Of a DNA stretch of 64,000 nt, positions 15,315 through 64,000 are shown piece by piece. The notes below the pieces were generated by a model that was not told where the DNA came from, did not search any database, and worked only from the letters and a program-made list of their open reading frames with translations. The DNA comes from Schmidtea polychroa (lineage: Eukaryota): contig CM097885.1 in NCBI GenBank assembly GCA_044892525.1, positions 71,796,001 through 71,860,000 of the forward strand. The letters are read 5' to 3'. A program made the translations under genes and the position numbers. Positions within the stretch are counted from its first letter, which is position 1; each line of letters starts with the position of its first letter.

Positions 15315-16454
15315 TTGTTAGTTTCAAGATTTTTGCTGCGAAATTTAAAGATGGATCTAAAGATGGATTTAACTGGCGACCACGTCGAAAATCAAAATAT
15401 CATCGCCATTTCGAAATCGACAAAATCGCAAATGGAATGCCTACCGAAATCATGCCAAGACATGCTCACACTGAACATCAGACGATATGATGGACGAGGT
15501 TTAAAAGAAGCCGAAGAATGGATCAGGGATATAGAAGAATGGTTGCTGATAAATGGACAGCGATCGACAAGCACTTTCGATGTGTTATTAGTGGCAGAAG
15601 CAAAGACATTGTGGGGAAACGTCAGAGAAACAGAAACAACAGGTGTAAAAGTCAAAGTGTGGTTCTTAAATACGTTCACAATTACAAAATCAATAACTGA
15701 CAAAATCAGAGAATTGGCAGCTATGGAACAGGAAGATGATGAAAGGTTTGCAGCTTTTGAGATACGGCTAAGAAAAGCTTTAGCTGAAGTTGTAAATTCA
15801 GGACGATCAGAAGAAGATATTGTTCAAGACCTCATCGCAAATAAAGCACGCGATGCGAGACTGAGGGAGATACTATTGATGAAACCAGAAACAAAAATTG
15901 AAGAAACGAGATCATTGGCAAAAATATTTGAAATTAACAAAAATGTAAACCATAAAACAGAATTTATTAAAGCAATCGGTCAAAGAACATACGCTAGCGT
16001 GACTGAGGGAGGGAAGATGAAAATTCAAAAGAATACCCAAGATCCCATGCCTACATCACCAAAATGAAGACCAGCAGAAGACCCATTTAGTCACCACAGA
16101 TCAAGAAGAGACGAACATCCTATACGCGGACCAATACAATACGAAGGAAATAGCCATGGTCGTCGAGAACAATCTCCAAAAGAACAATTCTTCAGAAATA
16201 CGAGAATCCCGAATAGCTCAGAAAGGAAGCTACCGACAATATCCATGAAGAATATAGCAAGGAGGCTGTACAACGAAAGTAGGGGACTACCACAAGCATC
16301 GGTCCCAAAATTAACGGTAGGTGATTGTTTTTGCTGTGGCGAAAGGGGACATAAAAGGTATGAGTGTCCACTGGGAAATAAATGCCTGATATGTGGCAAG
16401 GAAGGACACGGGTTCCGAGATTCTTTTTCGTTACGGAAAGATGTTCCACACTGA
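15315..16454 (+). pseudogene. gag: Gypsy gag with two CCHC-type knuckles, interrupted by an in-frame TGA at 16065-16067
   Basis: ORFs 15315-16067 and 16245-16454 are in the same frame; CFCCGERGHKRYEC and CLICGKEGHGFRDS (last Cys lost). Confidence 0.85.
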
Positions 16455-16705
16455 TATCAAAGAATAGCGTGCATAGAAGAAGAAGATTCAAAATCTGAAA
16501 CAAGAGATTACACCGAGAACAGCCAGGATTTCAGAATGGATCACAGCAATATGGAAAATAGATACAGTGTCCCTGAGAAATATACTATATTGAGAGAAGA
16601 CGGAAAAAACATCAGCGACTCCATGGGTTTCATTTCGTCGGTGGAGTCAAGACAATAAATTGTGAAATAAGAAATAAACGACGAAGAGACGAGGTAGAAG
16701 AAAAG

Positions 16706-18664
16706 ATGTACCAGACGAAAGATGGAAGAAATTGGAGTAAAATAATGTTGAATAATGCCGAAACAGAGATGTTATGGGATTCTGGAGCATCAGTAACAGT
16801 CATGAGCAAGAATTTGTGGGAGAAAATAGGCAAACCAGAACTTAAACGTAGTATGATATTATTGTGCGGAGTTTTTTCAACTGGAGGTGAAGAAGCAATG
16901 GGATACATGACTATACCGGCCACATGGAATCAGAAGACCAAAATAATCACAGTAGTAGTGGTAAAAGAGATCAAACCCGAATTCATAGGGGGCATTGATA
17001 CAATGAAAGAGTTTGGAGTAAAGTTAGTGAAAATCAATAATATAGAAACGTCATTGATAAACAAAATTTACACTGATGAAAAAAGAATAAATAAAGCACT
17101 AGTGGCGATGGCAGGTGAGAATAATAAAGATATTGAAGGAATGATCAGGGAATTCGGCGGAATTTTTATGGCATCGAAATTCGATCTGGGATTAACAAAC
17201 TTAGTTCGACATGAGATGCGGATAACAGGAAGCCCAATAATGCAACATCCTCGACGTCAAATAATGCACATGGAGAAAAGGATTGAAGAACTGATAAAAG
17301 AGTTAATGAAAGCAAATGTTATTCGGTGTTGCAAGAGTCCTTGGAATGCCCCGTTAGTGATAGTAGGGAAGAAAGATGGATCTATCAAGATGTGTGTAGA
17401 TTATCGTGGATTAAATTCTATAACAGAAAAAGAGTCATTTCCTATGCCTAACAACAAATTCTTACTAGACTGTCTCGCGAATGCAAAAATATTTTCGTCA
17501 ATCGATTTAGGTCAGGCTTATAATCAAGTGGAGTTGGCTCCAGAAATTCAAGAAATGACTGCATTCAGTACAAGAGAAGGACAATTTTGCTTCAATAGAC
17601 CACCTTTTGGCTTAGCAACAGCTCCTGTGACATTCCAGAGACTGATGCACACAGTGCTAGAAGGAATGCTATTCAAGGGAGTAGTAGTTTATCTAGATGA
17701 TATCTTGGTATATGGTAAAAGTCAAAAAGATCACGATGAGCTATTAAGGGAAATATTCAGAAGAATTCAAGTGGCAGGACTGAAGATAAATCCAGAAAAA
17801 TGCAAATTCAATAAAACAGAATTGTGTTTCCTTGGTCACACAATTAACGAGAAGGGTATCCAGATCGAGAAAGCAGAAGTACCAAAAGGTTCAAAACAAT
17901 TGAGATCGTTTCTCGGATTAACGAACTACTATAGAAGATTCATCAAAGACTATGCCAAAATCGCCGAACCACTATACGCTGCAACATCTGGATGCGATAA
18001 AGATATAAATTGGACTAAAGAATGCAATGAGAGCTTCCAAACTCTGAAGAGACGGTTTTTCGAAGCACCTATCCTTGATTTTCCAAGAGAAGATAGGACT
18101 TTTATCTTAGACACAGACGCTAGTTTCGGAGCCATTGGTGCAGTTTTTAGTCAAATTACGGAAGATGGAGAAGAATCTGTCATAGCTTATGGCTCGAGAC
18201 ATATGTCATCACATGAAAATGGATACTGTGTAACCAGGAAAGAACTGCTCGCCGTACATGAATACGTCATGCATTTTAGAGAATATCTGTACGGGAAAAA
18301 ATTCATAATTCGCACCGACCACAAGTCATTGGTTTTCATGAACACTACAAAAACGCCAATCAGTCCGCAGTTCCAAACATGGTTAGCTAACCTGTCGGAA
18401 TATGATTTTGAACTAAAATATCGGAAAGGCGAAGAACACTCGAATGCAGATGGACTATCAAGATTAAAAAGTATGGTTTGCACCCAGTGTCAAACAAGAC
18501 ATGAAGAAGCNNNNNNNNNNNNNNNNNNNNNNNNNNNNNNNNNNNNNNNNNNNNNNNNNNNNNNNNNNNNNNNNNNNNNNNNNNNNNNNNNNNNNNNNNN
18601 NNNNNNNNNNNNNNNNNNNNNNNNNNNNNNNNNNNNNNNNNNNNNNNNNNNNNNNNNNCTATGA
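16706..18664 (+). CDS. pol: Gypsy pol: protease, reverse transcriptase, RNase H (3' part lost in an N gap)
   Basis: LWDSGA, SPWNAP, CVDYRGLN, YLDDIL, FLGH, DTDAS, TDHKSL motifs. Confidence 0.93.
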   Translation: MYQTKDGRNWSKIMLNNAETEMLWDSGASVTVMSKNLWEKIGKPELKRSMILLCGVFSTGGEEAMGYMTIPATWNQKTKIITVVVVKEIKPEFIGGIDTMKEFGVKLVKINNIETSLINKIYTDEKRINKALVAMAGENNKDIEGMIREFGGIFMASKFDLGLTNLVRHEMRITGSPIMQHPRRQIMHMEKRIEELIKELMKANVIRCCKSPWNAPLVIVGKKDGSIKMCVDYRGLNSITEKESFPMPNNKFLLDCLANAKIFSSIDLGQAYNQVELAPEIQEMTAFSTREGQFCFNRPPFGLATAPVTFQRLMHTVLEGMLFKGVVVYLDDILVYGKSQKDHDELLREIFRRIQVAGLKINPEKCKFNKTELCFLGHTINEKGIQIEKAEVPKGSKQLRSFLGLTNYYRRFIKDYAKIAEPLYAATSGCDKDINWTKECNESFQTLKRRFFEAPILDFPREDRTFILDTDASFGAIGAVFSQITEDGEESVIAYGSRHMSSHENGYCVTRKELLAVHEYVMHFREYLYGKKFIIRTDHKSLVFMNTTKTPISPQFQTWLANLSEYDFELKYRKGEEHSNADGLSRLKSMVCTQCQTRHEEXXXXXXXXXXXXXXXXXXXXXXXXXXXXXXXXXXXXXXXXXXXXXXXXXXL

Positions 18665-18879
18665 AAAATGTATGGGAACAACAACAAAAGGACATTTGGT
18701 TTCGAGAGCTGCGAGATATATTGGAAAATGGATGTACACGGGAGAAAAAGAATTGTTTTCTTTTTAACGTAAAAAATACATGAATTGATCGAGGATTAAT
18801 AACAGTAGAACAAAATACCTTAAACAAAAATATCTTAATGTTAGTCCCAGAAACATTTGCAGGTCTGTTAACAACAACG

Positions 18880-19824
18880 CTACATGAAGAACTATGTCAC
18901 ATTGAAGTTAAGGAAATATTTCATTATATGGAAAAGATATTTTATTGGCCGAAAATGCAAGAAACAATCCAACTCTGTTTACGATGTTGCGAGATCTGAG
19001 CTAAGAGAAAGATCGATCAGACAAGAACCAAGGAAACATTTATTCCTAGATATAGCTCTGAATTCCTAGAACAGATTGTTATAGATGTGACTTACATGGA
19101 AATAAACGCCATAAAAATATATATGGTAGTAATGGTGGACCGTTTTAGCAAACTGATTTCTTTAACTGCAATCACAAAGCAAGACGAAGGGACCATTTTC
19201 AAAACAATACTTAATAGTTGGATCTATCGATTTGGAAAACCGAAGAGCATTTTAACAGATAGAGGCCAAAATTTCGAAGGGAATTTCCTAAGACAGAAGC
19301 TACAGAAACTTGGAATCAAACAGGAATTCAGCTCACCTTACCAGCACCAATCAAATGGTTTAGCCGAAAGAGCCATACGAACGATAAGAGATCTTATTAC
19401 AGCAACATTGGCAAGCGGATGTGAAGAGAGAAACTGGCACGAACTTCTACCCAGAATAGAGTTCACTATAAATAACAGTCGACAAAGTGCTACAGGTTTA
19501 TCACCATTTGAGATAATTTATGGACGGAGTGTTAACCTACACTCTAACCTGAAACAAGCTGAGATATCAAGAAGCGAAAGAATCGAAGACGCGAGATTTA
19601 ACTCGAGTAAAGCCACAGACACTATGAGAGCTATGGATAAGACAATGAGGGGCACTCGTGTTTTCGAGGTGGGGAGGAGGTACTCGTACGTAAAGAGCCA
19701 CAGAACAGGCGCAAGGATGGTATGCAATACGATGGCCCATATAAAATCGCCAGATTTCTATCACCTCATCGAGTCGAACTACATTCACAAGAAGGAACGA
19801 AAGAAAGAAGAATCGAGTGGCTGA
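18880..19824 (+). pseudogene. Gypsy integrase (HHCC region disrupted, DDE core in 19087-19824)
   Basis: H..C H..FYWPKM..C..C zinc-binding region; TDRGQNF; SSPYQHQSNGLAERAIRT; TGLSPFEIIYG. Confidence 0.88.
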
Positions 19825-40206: not shown

Positions 40207-40845
40207 CTATACTGAAACCTTCATAGATAATAATGTTGAACCTAAATCATATTCCACATAATGTTTAATCATCAACGTTTCTCGACACTGAACAGGGTAT
40301 CTATGCTGACAGGGCAACTCGTACACTTCATCGGCCTCCTCATACTCTGACAGACAAATGGAACCTGTATCATTAGCTGCGGTGATTTTCTTGACTTGTA
40401 ATTTCTCAATATCTGCCTCATTTGCTGGTGGAGGACCACTCTGTTCAAATTGCTTCATAATGCTCGTTACAAAATTGTCGAAACTTTGATCTGAAAATAT
40501 GTAATCTGACGAATCGGATCTAAAATCCAGCGGCAGCAATCCACCAAATAAATTTGATATTAGTTGGCCAAAAACACTATTTCTGTTATCAGGATCTCTT
40601 GGAGTAATAAAAAAGGAACCATCAGTTTCGTTTATAGTACTTCCACCAGGAATATGACGAATAAGATGAAAAATATTCAAGGCATCATCATCATTTTCCA
40701 TTGAGTTATCAGATTCAATTCTTTCAATAAATCCATCATTGCACGTCACACATTTACCATCCTGAGATGTGTGAACGTCCTTGTTGCATTTATGCTCATA
40801 GTAATTATCTGTATTAATCGAAGCCATTAAAGAAATCGTAGCCAT
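40207..40845 (-). pseudogene. Intronless, degenerate RNF115/RNF126-like E3 ligase copy
   Basis: N-terminal YY.HKC...C..C..GFIE zinc ribbon; DY...FDNFVT..M.QFE..GPPPA; RING-H2 remnant SICLSEYE..EVYELPCQH lacking the first Cys and the second half. Confidence 0.8.
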
Positions 40846-55004: not shown

Positions 55005-55253
55005 CAAGTAGTGAGGAATCTATGCACCCCACCACCACCACCCCCAAAAAACCAGCGTTATTAACCCATATTTTCCACATTTATATGCTTTTTTACCCCA
55101 TATTCTTCACTTTTTTTAACTTTTAAACTTTGTCCCCTATTGCCATTAACCCTTAATTTCTTCCCTTAAAAGTAAAAAAGTTCGGAATAGATGTATTTAT
55201 AGATTAGTAATTCCGAGAAAAGGTAACGGGGTGCATAGATTCCTCACTACTTG
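55005..55253. mobile_element. Mini element bounded by Maverick-type termini
   Basis: Perfect 26-bp inverted repeat CAAGTAGTGAGGAATCTATGCACCCC at 55005-55030 and 55228-55253; no TSD. Confidence 0.75.
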
Positions 55254-55396
55254 GTCTTAAGGATTTAATGTTATAAGGATTTAATGTTATAAGAATATCA
55301 GATTACCTAATTCATAATGATCTAGGTCGCCTGATCACCTTAAGGTTTTGAAAGTTTTAAAAATAAAAAATTTTATGAAAATAGTAAAACTGCTCT

Positions 55397-55408
55397 GAGG
55401 GGACAGTG

Positions 55409-55441
<33 letters not shown>

Positions 55442-55490
55442 CACTGTCCCCTCAACAGTTTTTTTTGATCCGGATCATTTTTTTTTTTTT
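55397..55490. other. 12-bp GC-rich stem with T30 loop, then T8, a 12-bp palindrome and T13
   Basis: GAGGGGACAGTG (55397-55408) / CACTGTCCCCTC (55442-55453); TGATCCGGATCA (55466-55477). Confidence 0.8.
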
Positions 55491-55569
55491 ATTTATCAAC
55501 CTCTTTCGTTTATCAAATCTCTTCCAATATACAAGCTGGCCAGACTCATACATCAGAATCAATCCGATA

Positions 55570-55795
55570 ATAGCAGCACGCCTTATTATTCGCTTCTCGC
55601 TCACGAAGTCGATTTCAACGGCGTTTTAAGCGTGCTGCTCGAAAGTACAAATGAATTCGAAAGAGAATTCGAAAGAAGTCCGAAAACAACCAAGAAATAA
55701 ATGTGCACATTATAGAATCGATCCGGGGGTGTTCGAAAGACAGGTGGCGATAATTACCGGTTCGCCACCATCACCCGTTTCAATATTTTTTTTTT
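55570..55795. ncRNA. GC-rich structured non-coding region, candidate Pol III RNA (orientation uncertain)
   Basis: Stems AGCAGCACGC/GCGTGCTGCT, GAATTC/GAATTC, GGTGGCGA/TCGCCACC and GGGTG/CACCC; minus-strand A-box-like TGGCGAACCGG; T10 run at 55786-55795. Confidence 0.45.
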
Positions 55796-55944
55796 CATAT
55801 TTATGTTTAAAAAATAATTAATTAATAAAAAAATAAAATAAAATAAAATAAATAAAATAAAATATACAAGTACTTTATAAATATAAGATACCCACACTAT
55901 TATTTTCAAATTTTTAATATTATTTTTATGTTGAAAAAAAACTA

Positions 55945-56015
55945 ACCACAGTTAGGATTTGAACCGCTATCTATTTGAACCACTGTGTCAGTCTAGCCCA
56001 CTGCGCCATCAAGGT
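55945..56015 (-). ncRNA. tRNA-like Pol III cassette 1
   Basis: A box TGGCGCAGTGG at tRNA position 8; B box GGTTCAAATCC; 71 nt; T8 terminator; stems mostly decayed. Confidence 0.75.
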
Positions 56016-56185
56016 TTGGATTTTTTGTCATTTTTTAGACTATAAATAATCGATTCAAGTTAAAACGTTTTTGATCTTAAATTTCCAAGAGTTGCCGTTG
56101 ACCAATCATCTTTAAAATTTGTACAAGTACTAAATCGAGTATGCTGATCAATATTTTGTTTAAAAAAAAAAATTTGAAAAAAAAT

Positions 56186-56257
56186 GACCGAAATGGGATT
56201 TGAACCCATTGGTATTGGCAATGCAGTCGAGTGCTATTACCACTAAGCTATACTCAA
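56186..56257 (-). ncRNA. tRNA-like Pol III cassette 2 (tRNA-Cys-like 5' half)
   Basis: A box TAGCTTAGTGG; D stem GCT/AGC; GACTGCA anticodon-like motif; perfect T arm ATGGG-TTCAAAT-CCCAT; 72 nt; T8 terminator; anticodon and acceptor stems poorly paired. Confidence 0.8.
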
Positions 56258-56421
56258 TATGAAATAAGTTGTTAATGTGTGACTATTTATTGATGAAATT
56301 AATAATTAATTATTCATTTTCTCGACAACTACCACTCAGATCCATCTGAAAATTTAAATATATACTAAAATCAGTACGCTGAATCAGATTCCGTTGAAAA
56401 AAAAAATATCGAAAAAAATTG

Positions 56422-56493
56422 ACCAAAATCGAAAATTGAACCCGGTACTCCCGGTGATAAAATTGAAGCCTATTCCCACTCCGCTATAATGGC
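56422..56493 (-). ncRNA. tRNA-like Pol III cassette 3 (tRNA-Asp-like 3' half)
   Basis: A box TAGCGGAGTGG; degenerate B box GGTTCAATTTT; partial acceptor stem GCCATTA/TTTTGGT; 72 nt; T7 terminator. Confidence 0.65.
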
Positions 56494-56551
56494 TTACATA
56501 ATATATTTAATTAATCCTATTGTGTGTGTGTGTAAATTTTAATATATAAAA

Positions 56552-57844
56552 ATGAATAATATAAATCTTAAAATTCAAGAAAAAAATAAATTAAATCTTG
56601 ATTATAATAAAGAATTTACTCATGAAATCAAGAAAAACGATGTACTTAAAATCTCCCCAACTTCAGGATCTATTGCAAACTTAAATCGTAGGGGTGATAT
56701 AGTTTTTCAATCTCTTCAAACATCAAACCCAATAGATATTTGTAATGCCAAATTATATTACAAAGTAGAATTAGAAATTGAAGCAAACAAAGATATAACC
56801 CTAGAAAATAATTTCTTTCCAAATTTATTCTCCAATATGAGATTAAAACTAGGATCATCAGAAATTGAAACTGTTTTACATCCGGGAGTATATTCTACAA
56901 TGTTAAATTTTATTTTGACTGGTTGTGATTATAAAAACGAATATGGTGAATTAACAGGTTGGATTCCTGATGTTAATAAAGGGGATTTAGATAAAGATGG
57001 TTTAGATGTAAACCATGGTTACTATAAAAGAGCTGAACTTTATAAATCTAAAAAATTTGAAGGTTATTTTGAATTAAAACACTTGTTTGGATTCCTTCAA
57101 AACTATAATCGTATACTTCATAATGTTTTTATAGAATTCATCTGTAATAGAGTAGAAGGTGATAAAAGATTGTTCTATGGAGCTGTAGATACAAAAGCTA
57201 AATTAAAATTATCAACACTTGAATTACATATACCTGAATGGACATTAAACCCACATTCTGAGATTAAACTCCTTGAAAGATTAAATTCCAACAAGTCTAT
57301 AAATGTAAATTATTTAAATAGAATCTGTAGTGAATTTAGTATGACAGAGGGTTCAACATATTCTATAAAGGTAGCAAATTTAGCATACCGACCAAGATAT
57401 ATCTTGATTGGATTCAAAGAAGTAGATTCATCTTTCCAAAAAAATAACAACTTGTTTATTCAAAAGATTGGAGTTGATAATTTAAAAACAATCCAAATTC
57501 AATTAAATAGTTCTTATTATCCAATAAATAGAATGGAATTTAATATTGAAAATAATGAAAACATATTCCCATATCTAAATTATATTGAAACATGTTATGA
57601 TTTCAAAGTTGAACCGCAATTAAGTTTAGAAGATTTCAAAAATTTATATTCTATATTTTGTATAAATGTATCAGACCAAGATGATCGATTAGCCATAAAT
57701 AATGTTGATGTTACACTTCATGTAACAAAGGATTCTAATTTTAAAGCTAAAGTATATACATTAATATTAGAAGAAAAGAAAATAGAAATAAAATTATATG
57801 GTGGAAAGATTTCAATAATCGAAAATGTTAGGGGAGATTCTTGA
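56552..57844 (+). CDS. Maverick major capsid protein (double jelly-roll, PY-like), 430 aa
   Basis: Size, beta-rich pattern and motifs (LENNFFP.LFS..RL, RPRYILIGF, YYP, F..LYSIFCINVS) recalled from Polinton capsids; viral gene context. Confidence 0.8.
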   Translation: MNNINLKIQEKNKLNLDYNKEFTHEIKKNDVLKISPTSGSIANLNRRGDIVFQSLQTSNPIDICNAKLYYKVELEIEANKDITLENNFFPNLFSNMRLKLGSSEIETVLHPGVYSTMLNFILTGCDYKNEYGELTGWIPDVNKGDLDKDGLDVNHGYYKRAELYKSKKFEGYFELKHLFGFLQNYNRILHNVFIEFICNRVEGDKRLFYGAVDTKAKLKLSTLELHIPEWTLNPHSEIKLLERLNSNKSINVNYLNRICSEFSMTEGSTYSIKVANLAYRPRYILIGFKEVDSSFQKNNNLFIQKIGVDNLKTIQIQLNSSYYPINRMEFNIENNENIFPYLNYIETCYDFKVEPQLSLEDFKNLYSIFCINVSDQDDRLAINNVDVTLHVTKDSNFKAKVYTLILEEKKIEIKLYGGKISIIENVRGDS

Positions 57845-57873
57845 TATAATCCCTGATATTTTAACATTTTAAA

Positions 57874-59115
57874 ATGTCTTTAAATAAATATTGGAGATGT
57901 GAAACTTGTAATTGTCAAGTTACAAGACATCATAAAGCAAGCCATCTTAAAACTAAAAAACATACAGGAGGCGATTTGCAATCTTCAAAAACAACATCTT
58001 CAATATTAAAACCTTTTACTACAGAAAAATATCCAGGTGAAAGACATTTATTTAAACACAACTATACTGAACCAGGAACACGTCTAGATATTAGATTAGA
58101 TGAAAATAATAATCCCAAACAAGGAGAAGAACCAATAAATAGAATTGATCAAGAAGCTTTAAAACATGACATTGCATACAATTCAACAAATCTTAGAGAT
58201 AGACATGTTGCAGATGTGAATTTAATACATGATTTAAATAGTATCCAAAATCCATCAACCCAAGAAAAGATTCAAAGAGCTCTAGTTAAATTAGCAATGA
58301 AAGGTAAGATTTTCATAGGCTTAGGACACAGTCCGATCACCATGGGTGCAAGACTTCCTAGGAAAGCGAAAGATGTTGCTTATAAAAAGATTATCGAACA
58401 AGCAGAGATTGAAAGATCCAAGACTAGTTTACAAACCCCAACAGAATCAGAAATAAAATATGCAAAGGAATTACACCATGAATTTAGAAAAAATAAAAAA
58501 TATTTAAAAGTTCAAGTACATGAAAAAGATCAAACATGGTCTGCAGATTTAGTCTTTATGCCCAAATCATCAGACCCTGAAAAATATAAAATAATTTTAA
58601 CTGTAATAGATTTATATACAAGATTTGCTTTTGCAAGATGTTTAGAAAATAAAACAGGATATTCTATTACAGAAGCATTTGAAAATATATTTGAAGAAAA
58701 TCAAAGAATCCCAAAATATTTATGGTGTGATAAAGGAACAGAATTTTATAACAAAGTTTTTACAAAGTTTTTAAATGAAAATGATATTAAATTATATTCA
58801 ACAGAAAACGAAGGAAAAGCAGTCGTAGTTGAAAGATTAAATAGAACATTAAAAAATAAAATGTGGAAATATTTTACTGCTATTGGAAAACAAAAATGGA
58901 ACAATGAATTGTTACAAAAGATTGTAAATGAATATAATAATGATGTACATAGTTCTATAAAATTAACACCTTTAAATGCTTCCATGAAGCCTGAAACCAT
59001 TAAAGTGGTAAATATTGAAAATGATGTTATTGAAAAACCAAAGTTTAAAATTGGTGACCGAGTAAGAATATTTAAATATAAAAATAAATTTGAAAAAGGA
59101 TTCACAGCAAAATGA
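57874..59115 (+). CDS. Zinc finger - parvovirus-type PLA2 - retroviral-like integrase fusion; probable premature TGA, frame continues to TAA at 59244
   Basis: C..C...H..TKKH finger; HNYTEPGT, LKHDIAY, RHVAD (PLA2); WSADL, WCDKGTEF, VVERLNRTLK (DDE). The stop sits at the W expected in KG.T..W, followed in frame by TNEIF...ITY...GRFY..ELQK. Confidence 0.92.
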   Translation: MSLNKYWRCETCNCQVTRHHKASHLKTKKHTGGDLQSSKTTSSILKPFTTEKYPGERHLFKHNYTEPGTRLDIRLDENNNPKQGEEPINRIDQEALKHDIAYNSTNLRDRHVADVNLIHDLNSIQNPSTQEKIQRALVKLAMKGKIFIGLGHSPITMGARLPRKAKDVAYKKIIEQAEIERSKTSLQTPTESEIKYAKELHHEFRKNKKYLKVQVHEKDQTWSADLVFMPKSSDPEKYKIILTVIDLYTRFAFARCLENKTGYSITEAFENIFEENQRIPKYLWCDKGTEFYNKVFTKFLNENDIKLYSTENEGKAVVVERLNRTLKNKMWKYFTAIGKQKWNNELLQKIVNEYNNDVHSSIKLTPLNASMKPETIKVVNIENDVIEKPKFKIGDRVRIFKYKNKFEKGFTAK

Positions 59116-59255
59116 ACAAATGAAATTTTTATTATAAATAAAATAAATTATACAACTCCAATAACATATAGCATCTTTGATTTAAATAATGAAAAAATAT
59201 TAGGTAGATTTTATAATAATGAACTGCAGAAAACAGATTTTTAAGTCGACAAGCC

Positions 59256-60062
59256 CTAAAACAAACTTTTCCATATTTCAGCTTCTTCTCTATCCAAATA
59301 AATATAATTATATTTTTCTTTCCAATGATTATCAACAAACATATCAAACATATTCTTATCAGGTTCAACATTTGAAAATAAATCATTATAAATCATATTC
59401 TTATCACGGCGATCTAATTTAAAAAATATAAAACAATTGGAATTATTTCTTATTGAATTTTTATCTAAAGCATAATATGTTTGAGATATATAAATAACAT
59501 TACAATTATTATGTCGACCTCGTGTAAAGTAACTCTTTTGAATCTCTTGATTTTTCATATTAACAACATCATCAAATATAACTAGATTCTTTTTATCTTT
59601 AGGAAGTAAATCACAATGTAAAACATCTTCAGGTTTATTAGAGAATAAAACTTGAATTGCCTCCTGCCCTTCTTCACAAATATAATCATTTTTATTACTA
59701 ATATCTGATTCTAAAATCTTTTCCTTATACCAATCAACCATATCACAAGGTTGAAAAACTTCTTCAGGACACCTATGTTGATTTTTAAAAATATCAATTA
59801 TTGCTTTTTTAGTTAATTTATTTTCAAATCCACATTTCAAAAGTTGTAATTCTGGTTGATTTATGGTTTCAGAATAAAAGATTAAATTATTATAATCTAA
59901 AAAATCATCTTCAAGTAACATTCTCAAAACAAGTACATTCTTTCCACATCCAGAAGAACCAACAATTAATAATCTAAAATTATCAGGAAATACTTTATTA
60001 TTGAATTTACTCTTATGTCTATTTAAAATTGGTTTCCAAATTATTGGACTTCGTACATCCAT
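59256..60062 (-). CDS. A32/FtsK-like genome packaging ATPase
   Basis: Walker A GSSGCGKN, Walker B LVIFDD, FTRGRH and ISQ.Y...IR.N motifs. Confidence 0.92.
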   Translation of the reverse strand: MDVRSPIIWKPILNRHKSKFNNKVFPDNFRLLIVGSSGCGKNVLVLRMLLEDDFLDYNNLIFYSETINQPELQLLKCGFENKLTKKAIIDIFKNQHRCPEEVFQPCDMVDWYKEKILESDISNKNDYICEEGQEAIQVLFSNKPEDVLHCDLLPKDKKNLVIFDDVVNMKNQEIQKSYFTRGRHNNCNVIYISQTYYALDKNSIRNNSNCFIFFKLDRRDKNMIYNDLFSNVEPDKNMFDMFVDNHWKEKYNYIYLDREEAEIWKSLF

Positions 60063-60077
60063 TTTGTTTATTATAAA

Positions 60078-60686
60078 ATGACCTCAAAGAGTTCCTCTAC
60101 TGAAGAATCTTTGCAAGAATTAATAAATTCAAATAAAAGTAAATCAGTAGTAATTGATGGTAAAAAATATTTTATTGGAAAACATGTAAAAGAACAAGTT
60201 AGAGCGAAGCTCCACGAAGCTAAAGAAGGTGGCATTCTTCCATTAGCTGCTTTAATACCTGCAATCATTGCTGGTTTATCAGGTGCTGCTGGAATAGCTG
60301 GAGGAATTGCAACTACAGTTCAAAAAGCTAAAGAATCTCAAAAGACAGACCTAGAAAAAGAAAAACTACAAACTGAAATCGATTCAATGAAGAAGGTAGG
60401 GCAAGCTAAAGGGGGAGTGTCCGTTGGAAAGGGTCTCTATCTTAATCCATATGAGGGGAGTCGGCAAAAGTCTCAGGGCAAAGGTCTCTATCTTGATCCT
60501 TATAAAGGTAGAGGTTTAAATGATTTTTTAAAAAATCAAATTTCTACATCTGAATCTTTATCTTCAAAAGATAAAGAAGATTTAAAAAAAATATGTAAAT
60601 CTTTAAAGAATGGATGCCTTTGTAAAACTAAAAATGGTAAAGGATTATACTTGAAACCCTTTCCAACGGATCCTTTACCAAAATGA
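60078..60686 (+). CDS. Putative virion core precursor with an adenovirus pX-like hydrophobic segment and repeated GKG-LYL motifs
   Basis: GGILPLAALIPAIIAGLSGAAGIA resembles adenovirus pX GGILPLLIPLIAAAIGAVPGIA; three GKGLYL copies plus GRGL. Confidence 0.65.
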   Translation: MTSKSSSTEESLQELINSNKSKSVVIDGKKYFIGKHVKEQVRAKLHEAKEGGILPLAALIPAIIAGLSGAAGIAGGIATTVQKAKESQKTDLEKEKLQTEIDSMKKVGQAKGGVSVGKGLYLNPYEGSRQKSQGKGLYLDPYKGRGLNDFLKNQISTSESLSSKDKEDLKKICKSLKNGCLCKTKNGKGLYLKPFPTDPLPK

Positions 60687-60708
60687 TACCATTTTTAATA
60701 CCATAAAA

Positions 60709-61578
60709 ATGGTATATGAAGAAAGATTAGCACTTTTAAAAAAATTACAATCAGAACAAGATAAATATAATAAAAAAGATACAAGTCAACATGCTGAATC
60801 TATAATATTAAATGAGGTAATAACACAACAACAGGGGCCAACAATTAAAGCTATAAAAGGATTAAATGAGCAAGCAAAATTTAAAGAGTTAGAAGATGGA
60901 GGAAGTCCCCATGAACAAAAAATAAAAAAACTAGAGTGGAAGGAAGAATCCAGTGAAAGTCATCCTGAAAGAAATCAAAGAAAACGCAGAAGAATTTCTA
61001 ATGCGGAAGAAGAAGAAGAAATGTTTTTAAAAACAAAACCTCTTAAAGTTGATCCTAAAATTAGAGATGATTTACCTCCTTCAATTAGACCCACATTTAA
61101 TACTAATACTGAAGGATATCAAATAATAACAATTAATAAACAAAACTTTACTTTATATTCAAATTCAGAAAATAAATCACGTATTCATTCACAAAATGTT
61201 TATAATAATGAATATTTAGACTTTGAATTTACAGATGATTTTTATAGATTACTTTGTGGATATTCTTCAGATGATCTTGAAGAAATTAAAAAATATTTAA
61301 ATTTAATAAGATTAATAAGAGCTAGTTCTAAAGCAAAATATATTCAAGATTTAAAGAATTATTTAGATAAAAATGAAAAGGGTTATGTTGTTACAGAGGG
61401 AGAGGGATTAATTAGTGAAGGAAATCCCATCAATCTTTTTATTGAATTAAGAAAACTATTAGCTGCAAGGAAAGCAGGACATAATAATTTAGATTCTGAT
61501 ATTTTAAAGATTTCTAAAGATTTGTTAAAACAAGGAATAATTTCAAAAGATAAATTTAATAAGTATACGAAGTTATAA
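60709..61578 (+). CDS. Maverick-associated protein of unknown function, 289 aa
   Basis: Clean ORF in the viral gene block; C-terminal helical motif NP..L..LR.LLA...AGHN...I...L...GII, recalled from other Polinton ORFs, preceded by GEGL. Confidence 0.7.
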   Translation: MVYEERLALLKKLQSEQDKYNKKDTSQHAESIILNEVITQQQGPTIKAIKGLNEQAKFKELEDGGSPHEQKIKKLEWKEESSESHPERNQRKRRRISNAEEEEEMFLKTKPLKVDPKIRDDLPPSIRPTFNTNTEGYQIITINKQNFTLYSNSENKSRIHSQNVYNNEYLDFEFTDDFYRLLCGYSSDDLEEIKKYLNLIRLIRASSKAKYIQDLKNYLDKNEKGYVVTEGEGLISEGNPINLFIELRKLLAARKAGHNNLDSDILKISKDLLKQGIISKDKFNKYTKL

Positions 61579-61600
61579 ATACGAAGTTTTAAAATACAAA

Positions 61601-62053
61601 ATGACTCCTTCAATATTAGATTTTTTAAAAACATTTGGAATAAATGCAAAAACAAATTTTGATTTAAAAGATTATGCAAATTATTTAAATTTAAAAATTA
61701 AAATATTAATGAATGATGAATTATCAAGTCTGGAGAGTCCCCTGAATATAATAATCAATTATCAAAATTCAAATGAAAAAGGATCTCATTGGGTTTGTAT
61801 ATATAAGAAATCTATCTACTTTGATTCTTTTGGGATTAAACCTACTAAAGAAGTTGAAGATTATCTCTTGAGGGGTTCTCCGATTGATTCCCCAAATGGT
61901 TATACTTTTAACTCTTTACAAGTTCAACCTTTGAATACTAAAATATGTGGTATTTTAAGTTTATATGTTTTGTATAGATTGAATATGGGGCATACGCAGG
62001 ATTTTGAATCTATAATTCAAGAAATTTATAATGATCTAGAATCTCTACTATAA
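61601..62053 (+). CDS. Adenain-like cysteine protease
   Basis: GSHW, YFDSFG and Q.....CG give the H-D-C triad and oxyanion Gln. Confidence 0.92.
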   Translation: MTPSILDFLKTFGINAKTNFDLKDYANYLNLKIKILMNDELSSLESPLNIIINYQNSNEKGSHWVCIYKKSIYFDSFGIKPTKEVEDYLLRGSPIDSPNGYTFNSLQVQPLNTKICGILSLYVLYRLNMGHTQDFESIIQEIYNDLESLL

Positions 62054-62101
62054 GGATTTTTACTATAAGGATTTTTACTATATGAATTTACTACTAAAGA
62101 A

Positions 62102-62866
62102 ATGGAGCTTCACAACCCTCCGGAAGATAATTTAAAAAAAATGGTAAACATAATGTCAGATAAATATTCAAGAACTTTATCTATAAATTCAAAAGAATCA
62201 GAGTTTACTATAAACTTTCAAGATTCAATTAAATTAGATCAAAATTTAAATTATGAATTGGGGCTATTATGGTTTTGTGCTTATAATACTATTTTTAATA
62301 TAACTAAAGATAATAATAAATTTACTATTCAAACTCGTGATGGGCATAAACCAGAAATTATAACAATAGAACCTGGGGCATATGAGATAAAAGATTTAAA
62401 TGATATACTTTCTAAAAAAACAAATGAAGGAATTAAAATTAAAATGGATATACCAACTTCAAAATGTGTAATGACTTTGAAGAATATAAAAATTAGTTTT
62501 TTAGATAATTGTTTCTTTCACACAGTTTTAGGATTTAAACCTATGGATATAACAATAAAAGAAGATAAAATAATAACATCAGAACATATTATAAAAATAA
62601 TAAATACAAACACAATAAATATTCATTGCGATTGTATAACAGGTTCTTATAATAATGGTAAACAAACAAATGTTTTATATTCCTTTCCCTCAAACACAGT
62701 TCCTATGGGATATAAAATAGTTGAAAGAATGAATCCTCCAAATTATTTACCTTTATGTAGAAAATATATAATGGATATTAATTTTAAAATTCTTAATCAA
62801 GAAGGAGAATTGATTGATTTTAATGGAGAAGAGATTTCAATGTATTTACATTTGAAACAGGTTTAG
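62102..62866 (+). CDS. Minor capsid / penton protein (single jelly-roll, PX-like)
   Basis: F...I.L, YN.I.NI..NN.F, I.PGAYEI.D.N, I.I.CD.I.GSY.NG....LYSF, ID.NGE motifs typical of Polinton pentons. Confidence 0.85.
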   Translation: MELHNPPEDNLKKMVNIMSDKYSRTLSINSKESEFTINFQDSIKLDQNLNYELGLLWFCAYNTIFNITKDNNKFTIQTRDGHKPEIITIEPGAYEIKDLNDILSKKTNEGIKIKMDIPTSKCVMTLKNIKISFLDNCFFHTVLGFKPMDITIKEDKIITSEHIIKIINTNTINIHCDCITGSYNNGKQTNVLYSFPSNTVPMGYKIVERMNPPNYLPLCRKYIMDINFKILNQEGELIDFNGEEISMYLHLKQV

Positions 62867-62906
62867 TTCCTCTCAGGGGACTCCGTCCATTTTAAATTAT
62901 TAATAA

Positions 62907-63239
62907 ATGAGTTCTTATATTCCATGTAATAGAGGTGGTGGAACAATAAAAACAGGGTTTAATACAGAAGAAATATTAACTTTAACAGAAAATAAATATA
63001 TTAATGAAAGAGGTGATTCAATGAAGGGTGATTTAATTTTAAATGGACACAAGATAAAAGAATTATCTTTTCCAACTGATGAAGCTGATGCAGTTAATAA
63101 GAAATATGTTGATTTAACAACAACAAGAATTGAAAGTTCATTAACAACAAAAATGGAATCAAAGCTTAATAATATCGAACAACGATTTAATGATAAATTT
63201 GACAAGTTACAAAGTCTGTTAATCTCTAAAGATAAATAA
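62907..63239 (+). CDS. Small fibre-like protein with a phage-tail-fibre-type repeat and coiled coil
   Basis: GDSMKGDLILNGHKIKELSFPTDEADAVNKKYVD matches the recalled G..M.G.L.M....I..L..P....DA..K.YVD pattern. Confidence 0.6.
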   Translation: MSSYIPCNRGGGTIKTGFNTEEILTLTENKYINERGDSMKGDLILNGHKIKELSFPTDEADAVNKKYVDLTTTRIESSLTTKMESKLNNIEQRFNDKFDKLQSLLISKDK

Positions 63240-63242
63240 CTT

Positions 63243-63914
63243 ATGGATAAACAAATTATGGATAAACAACTTATGGATAAACAACTTATGGATAAACAAA
63301 TTATGGATAAACAACTTATGGATAATAAATTTAATGCAATATATAATATAATAAATGAGATGATTACATCATTTAATGCAAGACTTGTAAAATTAGAATC
63401 TCATACAACACACATTAACAGCATACACACCATTAGAAAAAGAGCTGCTGAATTAGAACAGAATAAAACATTATTAGCAAATACATATAAACATTTTATA
63501 GAACCAATTTTAATAACAACAAACAGTAAAGAATGGTCTTGTTACATGATTGTAAAGATTATTGATCCATATTTCTTTTTATTTAATGATGATGGTGAAA
63601 CAATGAAATGGTTTGTGAAATGTGATTATAATAGTAAGTTTGAAAAAGGTGATGTTATAATGACTAGTTATGATTTAACACGAGGGTTTTGGCATGATAA
63701 TACTCAAACAGGTAAAGCACACAAAGTTAGAAGTAAAACTATTGATTTTAAAAGCACACTTGTGCATTATATAGATTTAATATTTTATGAAAAAAAGGTT
63801 GATGTTGATGAAGTTCGTAAAGCATTATTCGAGTTGTATAAAGATGAGCTCACAACAAGATTTTTCTATGATATACGGGTGTTGGTAGCTGATAAAGTCT
63901 TGTTGAGAGTTTAG
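63243..63914 (+). CDS. Hypothetical viral protein with N-terminal MDKQ(I/L) repeats
   Basis: 223-aa ORF; five 15-bp repeats encode the pentapeptide; coiled-coil then beta-rich region. Confidence 0.65.
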   Translation: MDKQIMDKQLMDKQLMDKQIMDKQLMDNKFNAIYNIINEMITSFNARLVKLESHTTHINSIHTIRKRAAELEQNKTLLANTYKHFIEPILITTNSKEWSCYMIVKIIDPYFFLFNDDGETMKWFVKCDYNSKFEKGDVIMTSYDLTRGFWHDNTQTGKAHKVRSKTIDFKSTLVHYIDLIFYEKKVDVDEVRKALFELYKDELTTRFFYDIRVLVADKVLLRV

Positions 63915-63976
63915 GTTTTAATTATTCTTATTAGTTAAATTCTTATTAGTTAAATTCTTATTTTAGTTTTATTAAA

Positions 63977-64000
63977 ATGGATGAGGTTCAAAAGATGGAA
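63977..64000 (+). CDS. Probable start of the next Maverick ORF (MDEVQKME...), truncated by the window end
   Basis: AAAATG context like the other viral genes. Confidence 0.35.

Follow-up and report, generated by a model that had tools for sequence, protein, structure and literature searches.

Three tRNA-like units and a fourth A/B-box head followed by a 390-nt stretch, all at the capsid end of a Maverick/Polinton, would together form an optional RNA polymerase III (Pol III) locus, whose likely product is a long RNA acting in trans. This reading is drawn from sequence comparison, and we regard it as plausible, though not quite as probable. The Pol III motifs of the locus are retained across subfamilies of the element, the locus is linked to Maverick ends, its long unit carries paired changes, and sister elements dispense with it. 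The window, meaning the whole stretch of 64,000 nucleotides that was analyzed (71796001-71860000 on contig C1), comes from a 781-Mb, AT-rich animal genome, and the features discussed below are listed in Table 1.

Table 1. Positions in the window of the Maverick, its genes and the parts of the candidate Pol III locus.
Feature	Position	Strand	Remarks
Maverick/Polinton	55007..64000	.	Runs about 6 kb beyond the window end; protein-primed DNA polymerase and right TIR seen in sister locus L031
Left terminal inverted repeat (TIR)	55007..55381	+	Starts AGTAGT; sister copies align from 55007
Predicted terminator of long unit	55365..55389	-	T4, T4 and T6 runs at TIR inner edge
Fourth unit, candidate long Pol III RNA	55386..55776	-	A/B-box head and a stretch of about 390 nt with conserved predicted fold
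3' hairpin of long unit	55390..55458	-	A-run loop of variable length; one pair changed on both sides
Helix B of long unit	55511..55569	-	59-nt hairpin, 24 predicted pairs, several G-U; 89-97% identical to older subfamily
Helix A of long unit	55573..55638	-	7/7 pairs in both subfamilies; 4/7 changed on both sides
B-box-like motif of long unit	55715..55724	-	A at tRNA position 54; 5' half predicted to pair with 55467-55478
A-box-like motif of long unit	55757..55767	-	Relaxed A/B pattern match, 0 in 200 shuffles
Short unit U1	55934..56015	-	A box, B box, T8; inner A-box-like and B-box-like word; 1-2 copies per element end
ORF-module junction	56058..56061	.	Most sisters have a module of about 240 bp with a small ORF here; window subfamily without it
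Short unit U2	56177..56257	-	Most tRNA-like, T stem 5/5; 26.7 bits here, 32.4 bits in L065 and L071 versions
Short unit U3	56412..56493	-	A box intact; B box without conserved final C; T7 then T10
Major capsid protein, double jelly roll, 430 aa	56552..57844	+	PF21738 E 6.7e-26; reads away from cassettes
Retroviral-type integrase with PLA2-like domain	57874..59115	+	PF00665 E 7e-12, PF08398 E 4e-7
A32-type packaging ATPase	59256..60062	-	PF04665 E 1.4e-8

The identification of the element as a Maverick, already made in the preliminary description, is confirmed by its TIRs and by Pfam matches to capsid, integrase, ATPase and polymerase, the last being a protein-primed DNA polymerase B in L031 (PF03175, E 6.9e-15). 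The PLA2-like domain of the integrase ORF (57874-59115) is of the parvovirus type, and this ORF ends at 413 aa. ORFs 61601-62053 and 62102-62866 may be the cysteine protease and the minor capsid protein of the usual Maverick gene set; Pfam returned only C39 at E 0.05 for one and nothing for the other. Seven 15-bp tandem repeats (63216-63350) span the stop of one small Maverick ORF and run into the start of the next. The total length is about 15 kb, up to a 383-bp repeat at the far end, read in L031, which matches the left end in inverted orientation at 93%. In all 29 sister loci, the alignment begins at 55007 or, in L026, slightly inside it. Within the TIR (55005-55253), its own first 26 bases are repeated inverted about 225 bp in, and the inner AGTAGT repeat is also found in other TIR types. 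CATGCA flanks the element on both sides as a 6-bp target duplication, and the element stops three bases earlier at its right end than other copies do. Both (AGT)n-ended TIRs and a 6-bp target duplication are given as marks of Mavericks in the available part of PMC8097293.

The host Maverick is a high-copy element, with well over a thousand copies in the genome. An 18-base capsid motif has 1,934 exact matches genome-wide, and the family is both young and large, with 40 scored matches at 96-100% over 55700-56700. One relative (L260-L261, C1:171000-186400, C1 being the contig of the window) shares 96-98% identity with the window Maverick in capsid, integrase and ATPase, whereas the polymerases are only 56% identical and the TIRs differ. 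Thus, the family is a mosaic of exchanged modules. At L129 and L142, Maverick pieces are embedded in or adjacent to another inverted-repeat element, one with C-run/G-run palindromes, and the piece in L129 includes the whole U2-ORF-U1-long-unit block. Elsewhere, the window holds an LTR-retrotransposon pol region with protease, reverse transcriptase, RNase H and integrase (15351-19824), a hAT transposase with a BED finger (25396-27279) and a single-exon ORF with a zinc ribbon and a RING finger, likely a host E3 ligase gene (40207-40845).

The three short units, U1 to U3, have the minus-strand positions and motifs first ascribed to them. A strict pattern (A box, 30-36 nt, GGTTCRA and a T-run), written after the units had been seen, occurs three times in the window and in 0 of 300 dinucleotide shuffles, and the A box alone occurs three times against a shuffle mean of 0.17. 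The A-box T residues at 56486, 56250 and 56008 place tRNA position 1 at 56493, 56257 and 56015, so that the 5' ends are 236 and 242 bp apart. T-runs of 7, 8 and 8 begin at 56418, 56184 and 55941 (U3, U2 and U1, respectively), and U3 starts 58 bp from the capsid ATG at 56552. Of 94 distinct units, 90 reach the T-run after 73-75 nt.

Compared with functional tRNA genes, the units have an A box, a B box at tRNA spacing (without its last C in U3) and a T-run, and none of them forms the full cloverleaf of acceptor, D, anticodon and T stems. ARAGORN called no tRNA in the window cassettes or in the cassettes of other loci tested. With the Rfam tRNA model, only U2 scores in the window, below the cut-off of 29 bits, in line with the low or pseudogene-like scores that had been expected. 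Two of ten other loci scanned carry the higher-scoring U2, and host tRNA genes reach 62-74 bits. The stems had been described as decayed, but the decay is incomplete. In the commonest versions, 4-7 of 7 acceptor pairs are left in younger types and 0-4 of 7 in older ones, and the T stem has 4/5 pairs in the unit adjoining the capsid gene and 2/5 in the third unit. Across 14 unit types, a box-filtered set, 12 types have 1-2 of 5 T-stem pairs, and the acceptor stem, counted in exact register, has 0-6 of 7. For U1 and U3, folding is no stronger than in shuffled sequence (z +1.4 and +0.3).

Box retention was also measured without a box filter. U1 chosen by its upstream flank alone gave 43 distinct sequences, with perfect A and B boxes in 33 and at most one mismatch per box in 39. 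The comparison across subfamilies used an older subfamily whose capsid protein is mostly about 80% identical. Between old and young U1 (8 and 30 units), the boxes are 95% identical and the interiors 51%, a value that includes indel misregister and counts one old copy (L159) as young; capsid DNA is 82-88% identical between old and young (nine old loci). These differences indicate that the promoter signals were kept and the tRNA fold was not. Promoter boxes, length and terminator are retained in the short units, whose tRNA fold is lost, and the aligned copies bear out the earlier proposal that the Pol III boxes, and not a decoding fold, are under selection.

U1-U3 resemble host tRNA genes and one another (shuffle p 0.001-0.02), which fits descent from host tRNA genes. 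U1 scores about equally against host Tyr-like, Arg and Lys genes. An origin of U2 from tRNA-Cys, considered for its anticodon-like GCA, found no support: the pattern search matched no host gene. Host tRNA genes are found in tandem arrays, with periods of 424 bp for tRNA-Lys(TTT) and 278 bp for tRNA-Arg(TCG), and host SRP RNA forms a tandem array with a 593-bp period. The host Pol III arrays lie on C4 near 76.66 Mb (L168, L202, L204), on C140, C333 and C474 (L191, L195) and on C2 near 31.93 Mb (L208). About 0.5 kb outside a cassette-less Maverick, two tRNA-Tyr-like host sequences stand 254 bp apart (L264:5140-5435); one has an intron-like insert (Rfam 35.3 bits), the other is cut, and the B-box word is that of U1 and U2.

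A tRNA-derived SINE was rejected as the source, since no free copies were found. In the first 18.5 Mb of C1, 42 of 42 U2 places lie beside Maverick parts (37 by long-unit match and five by capsid match), as judged by comparing the lists of U2, long-unit and capsid matches and by reading four of the five capsid-only cases. All 40 long-unit places on C1 likewise go with Maverick parts. Genome-wide counts of a U2 15-mer (1,424), one U1 variant (1,162) and a long-unit 19-mer (2,645 exact matches) are of the same order as that of the capsid motif. The preliminary description had named absence from sister copies together with a SINE match as the adverse outcome; the locus is absent from 8 of 8 cassette-less sisters, and no free SINE-like copies were found. 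It is highly unlikely, in our estimate, that the cassettes are neutral baggage, captured host tRNA pseudogenes or SINEs riding with a successful Maverick. The host tandem arrays could be captured in one step, the locus is dispensable and the B box of U3 is damaged in its commonest form, all of which suit such a passenger. However, boxes more conserved than the capsid gene around far less conserved interiors do not, nor does the constant company of other Maverick parts, and the spacers of the host tRNA arrays show no match to the Maverick spacers.

The fourth head (55767/55724) lies 240 bp beyond U1 and was missed in the preliminary description. Its alignment reveals no likeness to host tRNAs or to U1-U3 (p 0.26-0.71), so its promoter status depends on two short motifs, one of them doubling as a palindrome within a predicted helix. 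No T5 occurs for 386 nt behind the head, although this scarcity of T-runs is not significant (P 0.57), and a T4 at 91 nt into the unit could stop part of any transcripts. The long unit has an MFE of -133.1, with z -8.2 on the cassette strand and z -4.2 on the opposite strand. The cassette strand folds better in all 43 distinct copies folded, and in neighboring DNA likewise, by about 11 kcal.

Helix A and the 3' hairpin of the long unit have pairs that changed on both sides. The two forms of helix A occur in 73 younger and 12 older copies among the 101 scored, and its doubly changed pairs are all transitions. The doubly changed pair of the 3' hairpin is A-U in 24 and G-C in 13 of 38 copies. In helix B, pairing is preserved by 10 of 12 variants common to several copies and by 5 of 17 singletons (Fisher p 0.008), although transitions alone would preserve it in a fraction of 0.67, which the shared variants do not significantly exceed (p 0.18). 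Among 12 diverse copies, 97% of cells are paired, and none of 500 shuffles attained the covariation score; 26 of the 500 matched the number of doubly changed pairs, with the structure taken from the same alignment. G-U pairs often alternate with Watson-Crick pairs, and perfect palindromes and inverted repeats occur within the unit.

No Rfam family matches the long unit at E up to 10. Descent from SRP (7SL) RNA was rejected, with no Rfam hit and an alignment p of 0.12-0.97 against the host SRP gene (240 bits). A likeness to 7SK has no support, with no Rfam (RF00100) hit; the genome search was blank, as were its controls. A search for antisense matches between the long unit and the rest of the Maverick gave nothing over 11 nt.

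Such a stretch could instead work as a single-stranded DNA hairpin in strand-displacement replication or packaging, its paired changes arising by template-switch repair of inverted repeats. The long unit abuts or sits in the TIR, and the palindromes, the inverted repeats and the exclusive transitions at doubly changed pairs all agree with a DNA hairpin. Against this, the stretch is missing at one end in the window subfamily and at both ends in sisters with 99% identical TIRs. The limits of the unit also match the A/B-box head and the T-runs, and the many G-U alternations speak against pairing in DNA. We therefore rate the DNA hairpin as very improbable. The idea of a VA-like decoy, which the preliminary description attached to the short units, fits the 390-nt folded unit better than the three 72-nt units, which have no common fold.

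The arrangement of the units was compared in 40 cassette-bearing copies, of which 16 were chosen for visible cassettes and 24 by open frame from the remaining relatives. U1 and the fourth head are present in 40/40 and the long-unit body in 39/40, whereas U2 and U3 occur in 18/40 (in three of them behind the body) and are missing in 22/40. Gaps between units are about 150-500 bp overall (U1-U1 176-244, U1-head 154-506, U2-U1 median 485 in 30 cases). The locus is therefore not the fixed regular array first described: unit number, order and spacing vary, and the even spacing is specific to the window subfamily, where it results from the absence of the ORF module of about 240 bp. That module (L071:456-725, minus strand) encodes 89 aa rich in E, K and R with no Pfam family; it lies between U2 and U1 in most copies and beside the capsid start in others. 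The module adjoining the capsid ATG is U1 in 16 copies, U3 in 15 and the small ORF in 9.

The locus is tied to the ends of Mavericks. Cassettes always lie between the element terminus and the first gene, and both terminal genes are flanked in long-TIR elements. Every unit mapped points outward. Among 40 evenly picked long-unit places on C1, 25 are by the capsid start and 8 by the polymerase start, the other 7 being in Maverick fragments that are broken or rearranged. Some elements have the locus at both ends, as seen in 17 outward-facing pairs among 100 places listed; in the window copy and in 3 of 3 sister copies read whole, it is at the capsid end only. Locus motifs stand beside 56 of 66 capsid-motif places in the first 18.5 Mb of C1.

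Other members have no locus at all. Of the first 30 capsid loci, 12 have no cassette within 1.25 kb: nine run directly into a different TIR, two have a cut ORF module and one is masked. Eight of these nine were read over 20 kb; they were without a cassette or long unit at either end in 8 of 8 cases, their capsid identity is 86-97%, and the TIR pairs are 92-99.6% identical in six. One of them (L055) has a single 48-nt partial U1 match about 2 kb outside the TIR. The absence from eight sister elements means that the locus is not required. No cassette was found in a second Maverick family of the same genome (one whole element and two partial ones). A locus at one end being enough suits a product that works in trans, and elements with the locus at one end or at neither are easier to explain by a diffusible optional product than by a required cis signal, with a partial barrier role possible.

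These distributions bear directly on the proposal that the cassettes are a cis-acting tDNA barrier, on which TFIIIC and Pol III would block the spread of heterochromatin over the capsid or polymerase promoter and the RNAs would be irrelevant. The short units retain boxes, spacing and terminator but share no fold, they occupy the position between terminus and first gene that a barrier would take, and a cassette lies within 60 bp of the capsid ATG in 31/40 copies. In fission yeast, tDNA barriers depend on TFIIIC and Pol III according to the part of PMC2040200 that was available. The yeast barrier is independent of orientation, whereas all units mapped here point outward. A barrier would also leave the paired changes of the long unit unexplained, and it is hard to reconcile with the bare polymerase end of the window subfamily, with the copies that have the small ORF beside the capsid start and with complete sister elements lacking any cassette. 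The insulator first proposed as protecting capsid expression is not supported as a necessary part of these elements, and we consider a barrier unlikely to be the main role.

Under the favored reading of an optional locus with a trans-acting product, the cassettes would have been captured from the tandemly arrayed tRNA genes of the host, and host TFIIIC, TFIIIB and Pol III would load onto them. The short units may be kept as promoter platforms that hold the locus open, their RNAs of about 75 nt being by-products. The long RNA would act in trans. Its most likely role would be that of a double-stranded decoy or a precursor of small RNAs, through the 59-nt helix B. It might thereby blunt host RNA silencing and help the Maverick family multiply.

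Alternatively, the RNAs of about 75 nt from U1-U3 could themselves be the effectors, like the vtRNAs of MHV68, for example as sponges for La or tRNA-handling proteins. The constant unit length and the acceptor pairs kept in younger types are compatible with this role, and a lone vtRNA partly restores virulence in MHV68, as reported in the available part of PMC4337559. The same source describes the vtRNAs as resembling each other in sequence and structure, unlike U1-U3 (PMC4337559). The diverged interiors, the scant acceptor pairs of older types, the two T-stem pairs of most types, the shuffle-like folding of U1 and U3 and the many copies without U2 and U3 also argue against short effectors, which we judge improbable.

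Four sequencing runs guessed to be RNA were read as contigs; they may hold DNA, and their depth cannot rank parts. Run X1, possibly DNA, covers 24 of 30 bins, including the capsid gene, the short units and the body of the long unit, and leaves out 55727-55886; its summed contig depth over the long unit greatly exceeds that over the capsid gene, a difference that does not rank the two. In run X3, possibly DNA, one contig over 55600-55783 extends past the predicted start of the long unit, and runs X5 and X6, with the same proviso, gave only short A/T-rich pieces. The viral contigs searched contained no capsid relative and no match to helix B. Among 16 metagenome loci, none has cassettes, and only L073 (50% capsid identity) has long upstream DNA. 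Relatives from other species at 73-74% came without DNA for a cassette check.

In its predicted working, the locus resembles TMER and VA loci, and it is a member of neither group where membership could be tested. The TMERs (tRNA-miRNA-encoded RNAs) of MHV68 are likewise tRNA-like Pol III units without a decoding role, clustered at one end of a double-stranded DNA genome amid small ORFs, and one Maverick unit has hairpins behind its head as TMERs do (PMC4337559 and PMC4378190, each in part). However, three of the four Maverick units end at a T-run without a hairpin, and the heads have no cloverleaf. By the TMER definition of a tRNA-like head with one or two hairpins, U1-U3 are without the hairpin, and the long unit has hairpins but a head that is not tRNA-like by alignment. 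TMERs are further defined by Pol III transcription and by their processing to miRNAs. The Maverick long unit is, moreover, a branched fold of about 390 nt, its carrier integrates, its host is an animal of invertebrate type, and it is known here as sequence.

Adenovirus VA RNA I and II and the EBERs of EBV are similar in placing a folded non-coding RNA behind an internal A/B-box promoter, as described in the available part of PMC4378190. From the same part, the VA carrier virus belongs to the broad double-jelly-roll lineage that includes the Maverick, and a possible decoy of dsRNA sensors or Dicer is common to both, for the Maverick only as an analogy (PMC4378190). Unlike VA RNA, the Maverick long unit measures about 390 rather than about 160 nt, is accompanied by extra short tRNA-like units and is optional in its family. 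Rfam scans at E up to 5 and 10 gave no hit to the VA family, whose RNAs are also defined by inhibiting PKR or saturating Dicer or export.

tRNA genes are known from virophages, Polinton-like viruses and MELD viruses (PMC6905037, PMC12220804 and PMC8502044, in the parts available). In those sources the genes are detector-grade and are read as decoding aids, whereas the Maverick units fail ARAGORN and keep boxes rather than anticodon arms. Helenus and Cassandra (TRIMp3) elements share a tRNA- or 5S-derived Pol III promoter in their terminal repeats, with conserved boxes and an RNA unlikely to be a working tRNA (PMC10886601, in part). There, the promoter makes the template for reverse transcription; the Maverick, in contrast, copies as DNA, and its units point outward and end at T-runs. 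Clustered A/B-box units at a domain border also form the cen1 tDNA-Ala barrier of fission yeast, according to the available part of PMC2040200. The Maverick units differ in being carried by a mobile element and dispensable in sisters, with a barrier activity that is putative.

Mavericks are known through their proteins, and the literature searched, mostly open papers, contained no Pol III RNA locus and no regulatory RNA of an animal Maverick. The words "tRNA" and "noncoding" are absent from the animal Maverick papers PMC8097293 and PMC10748475, and "VA RNA" is absent from PMC8502044. Similar loci in other Mavericks would have escaped notice, as standard tRNA detectors do not pick up such units.

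A further-reaching proposal is that an animal Maverick encodes a Pol III RNA that counters silencing, working as a 390-nt decoy or small-RNA precursor in the manner of VA RNAs or TMERs, alongside promoter-only tRNA remnants, and that this module let lineages outgrow cassette-less sisters to more than 1,000 copies and may recur in the Mavericks of other animals. Taken as a whole, this proposal is rather unlikely. If true, Mavericks would have gained the same kind of anti-defense tool as adenoviruses and gammaherpesviruses, independently and from host tRNA genes. Close relatives with the locus at two ends, one or none offer a natural experiment on whether a non-coding module accounts for escape from silencing and for lineage expansion.
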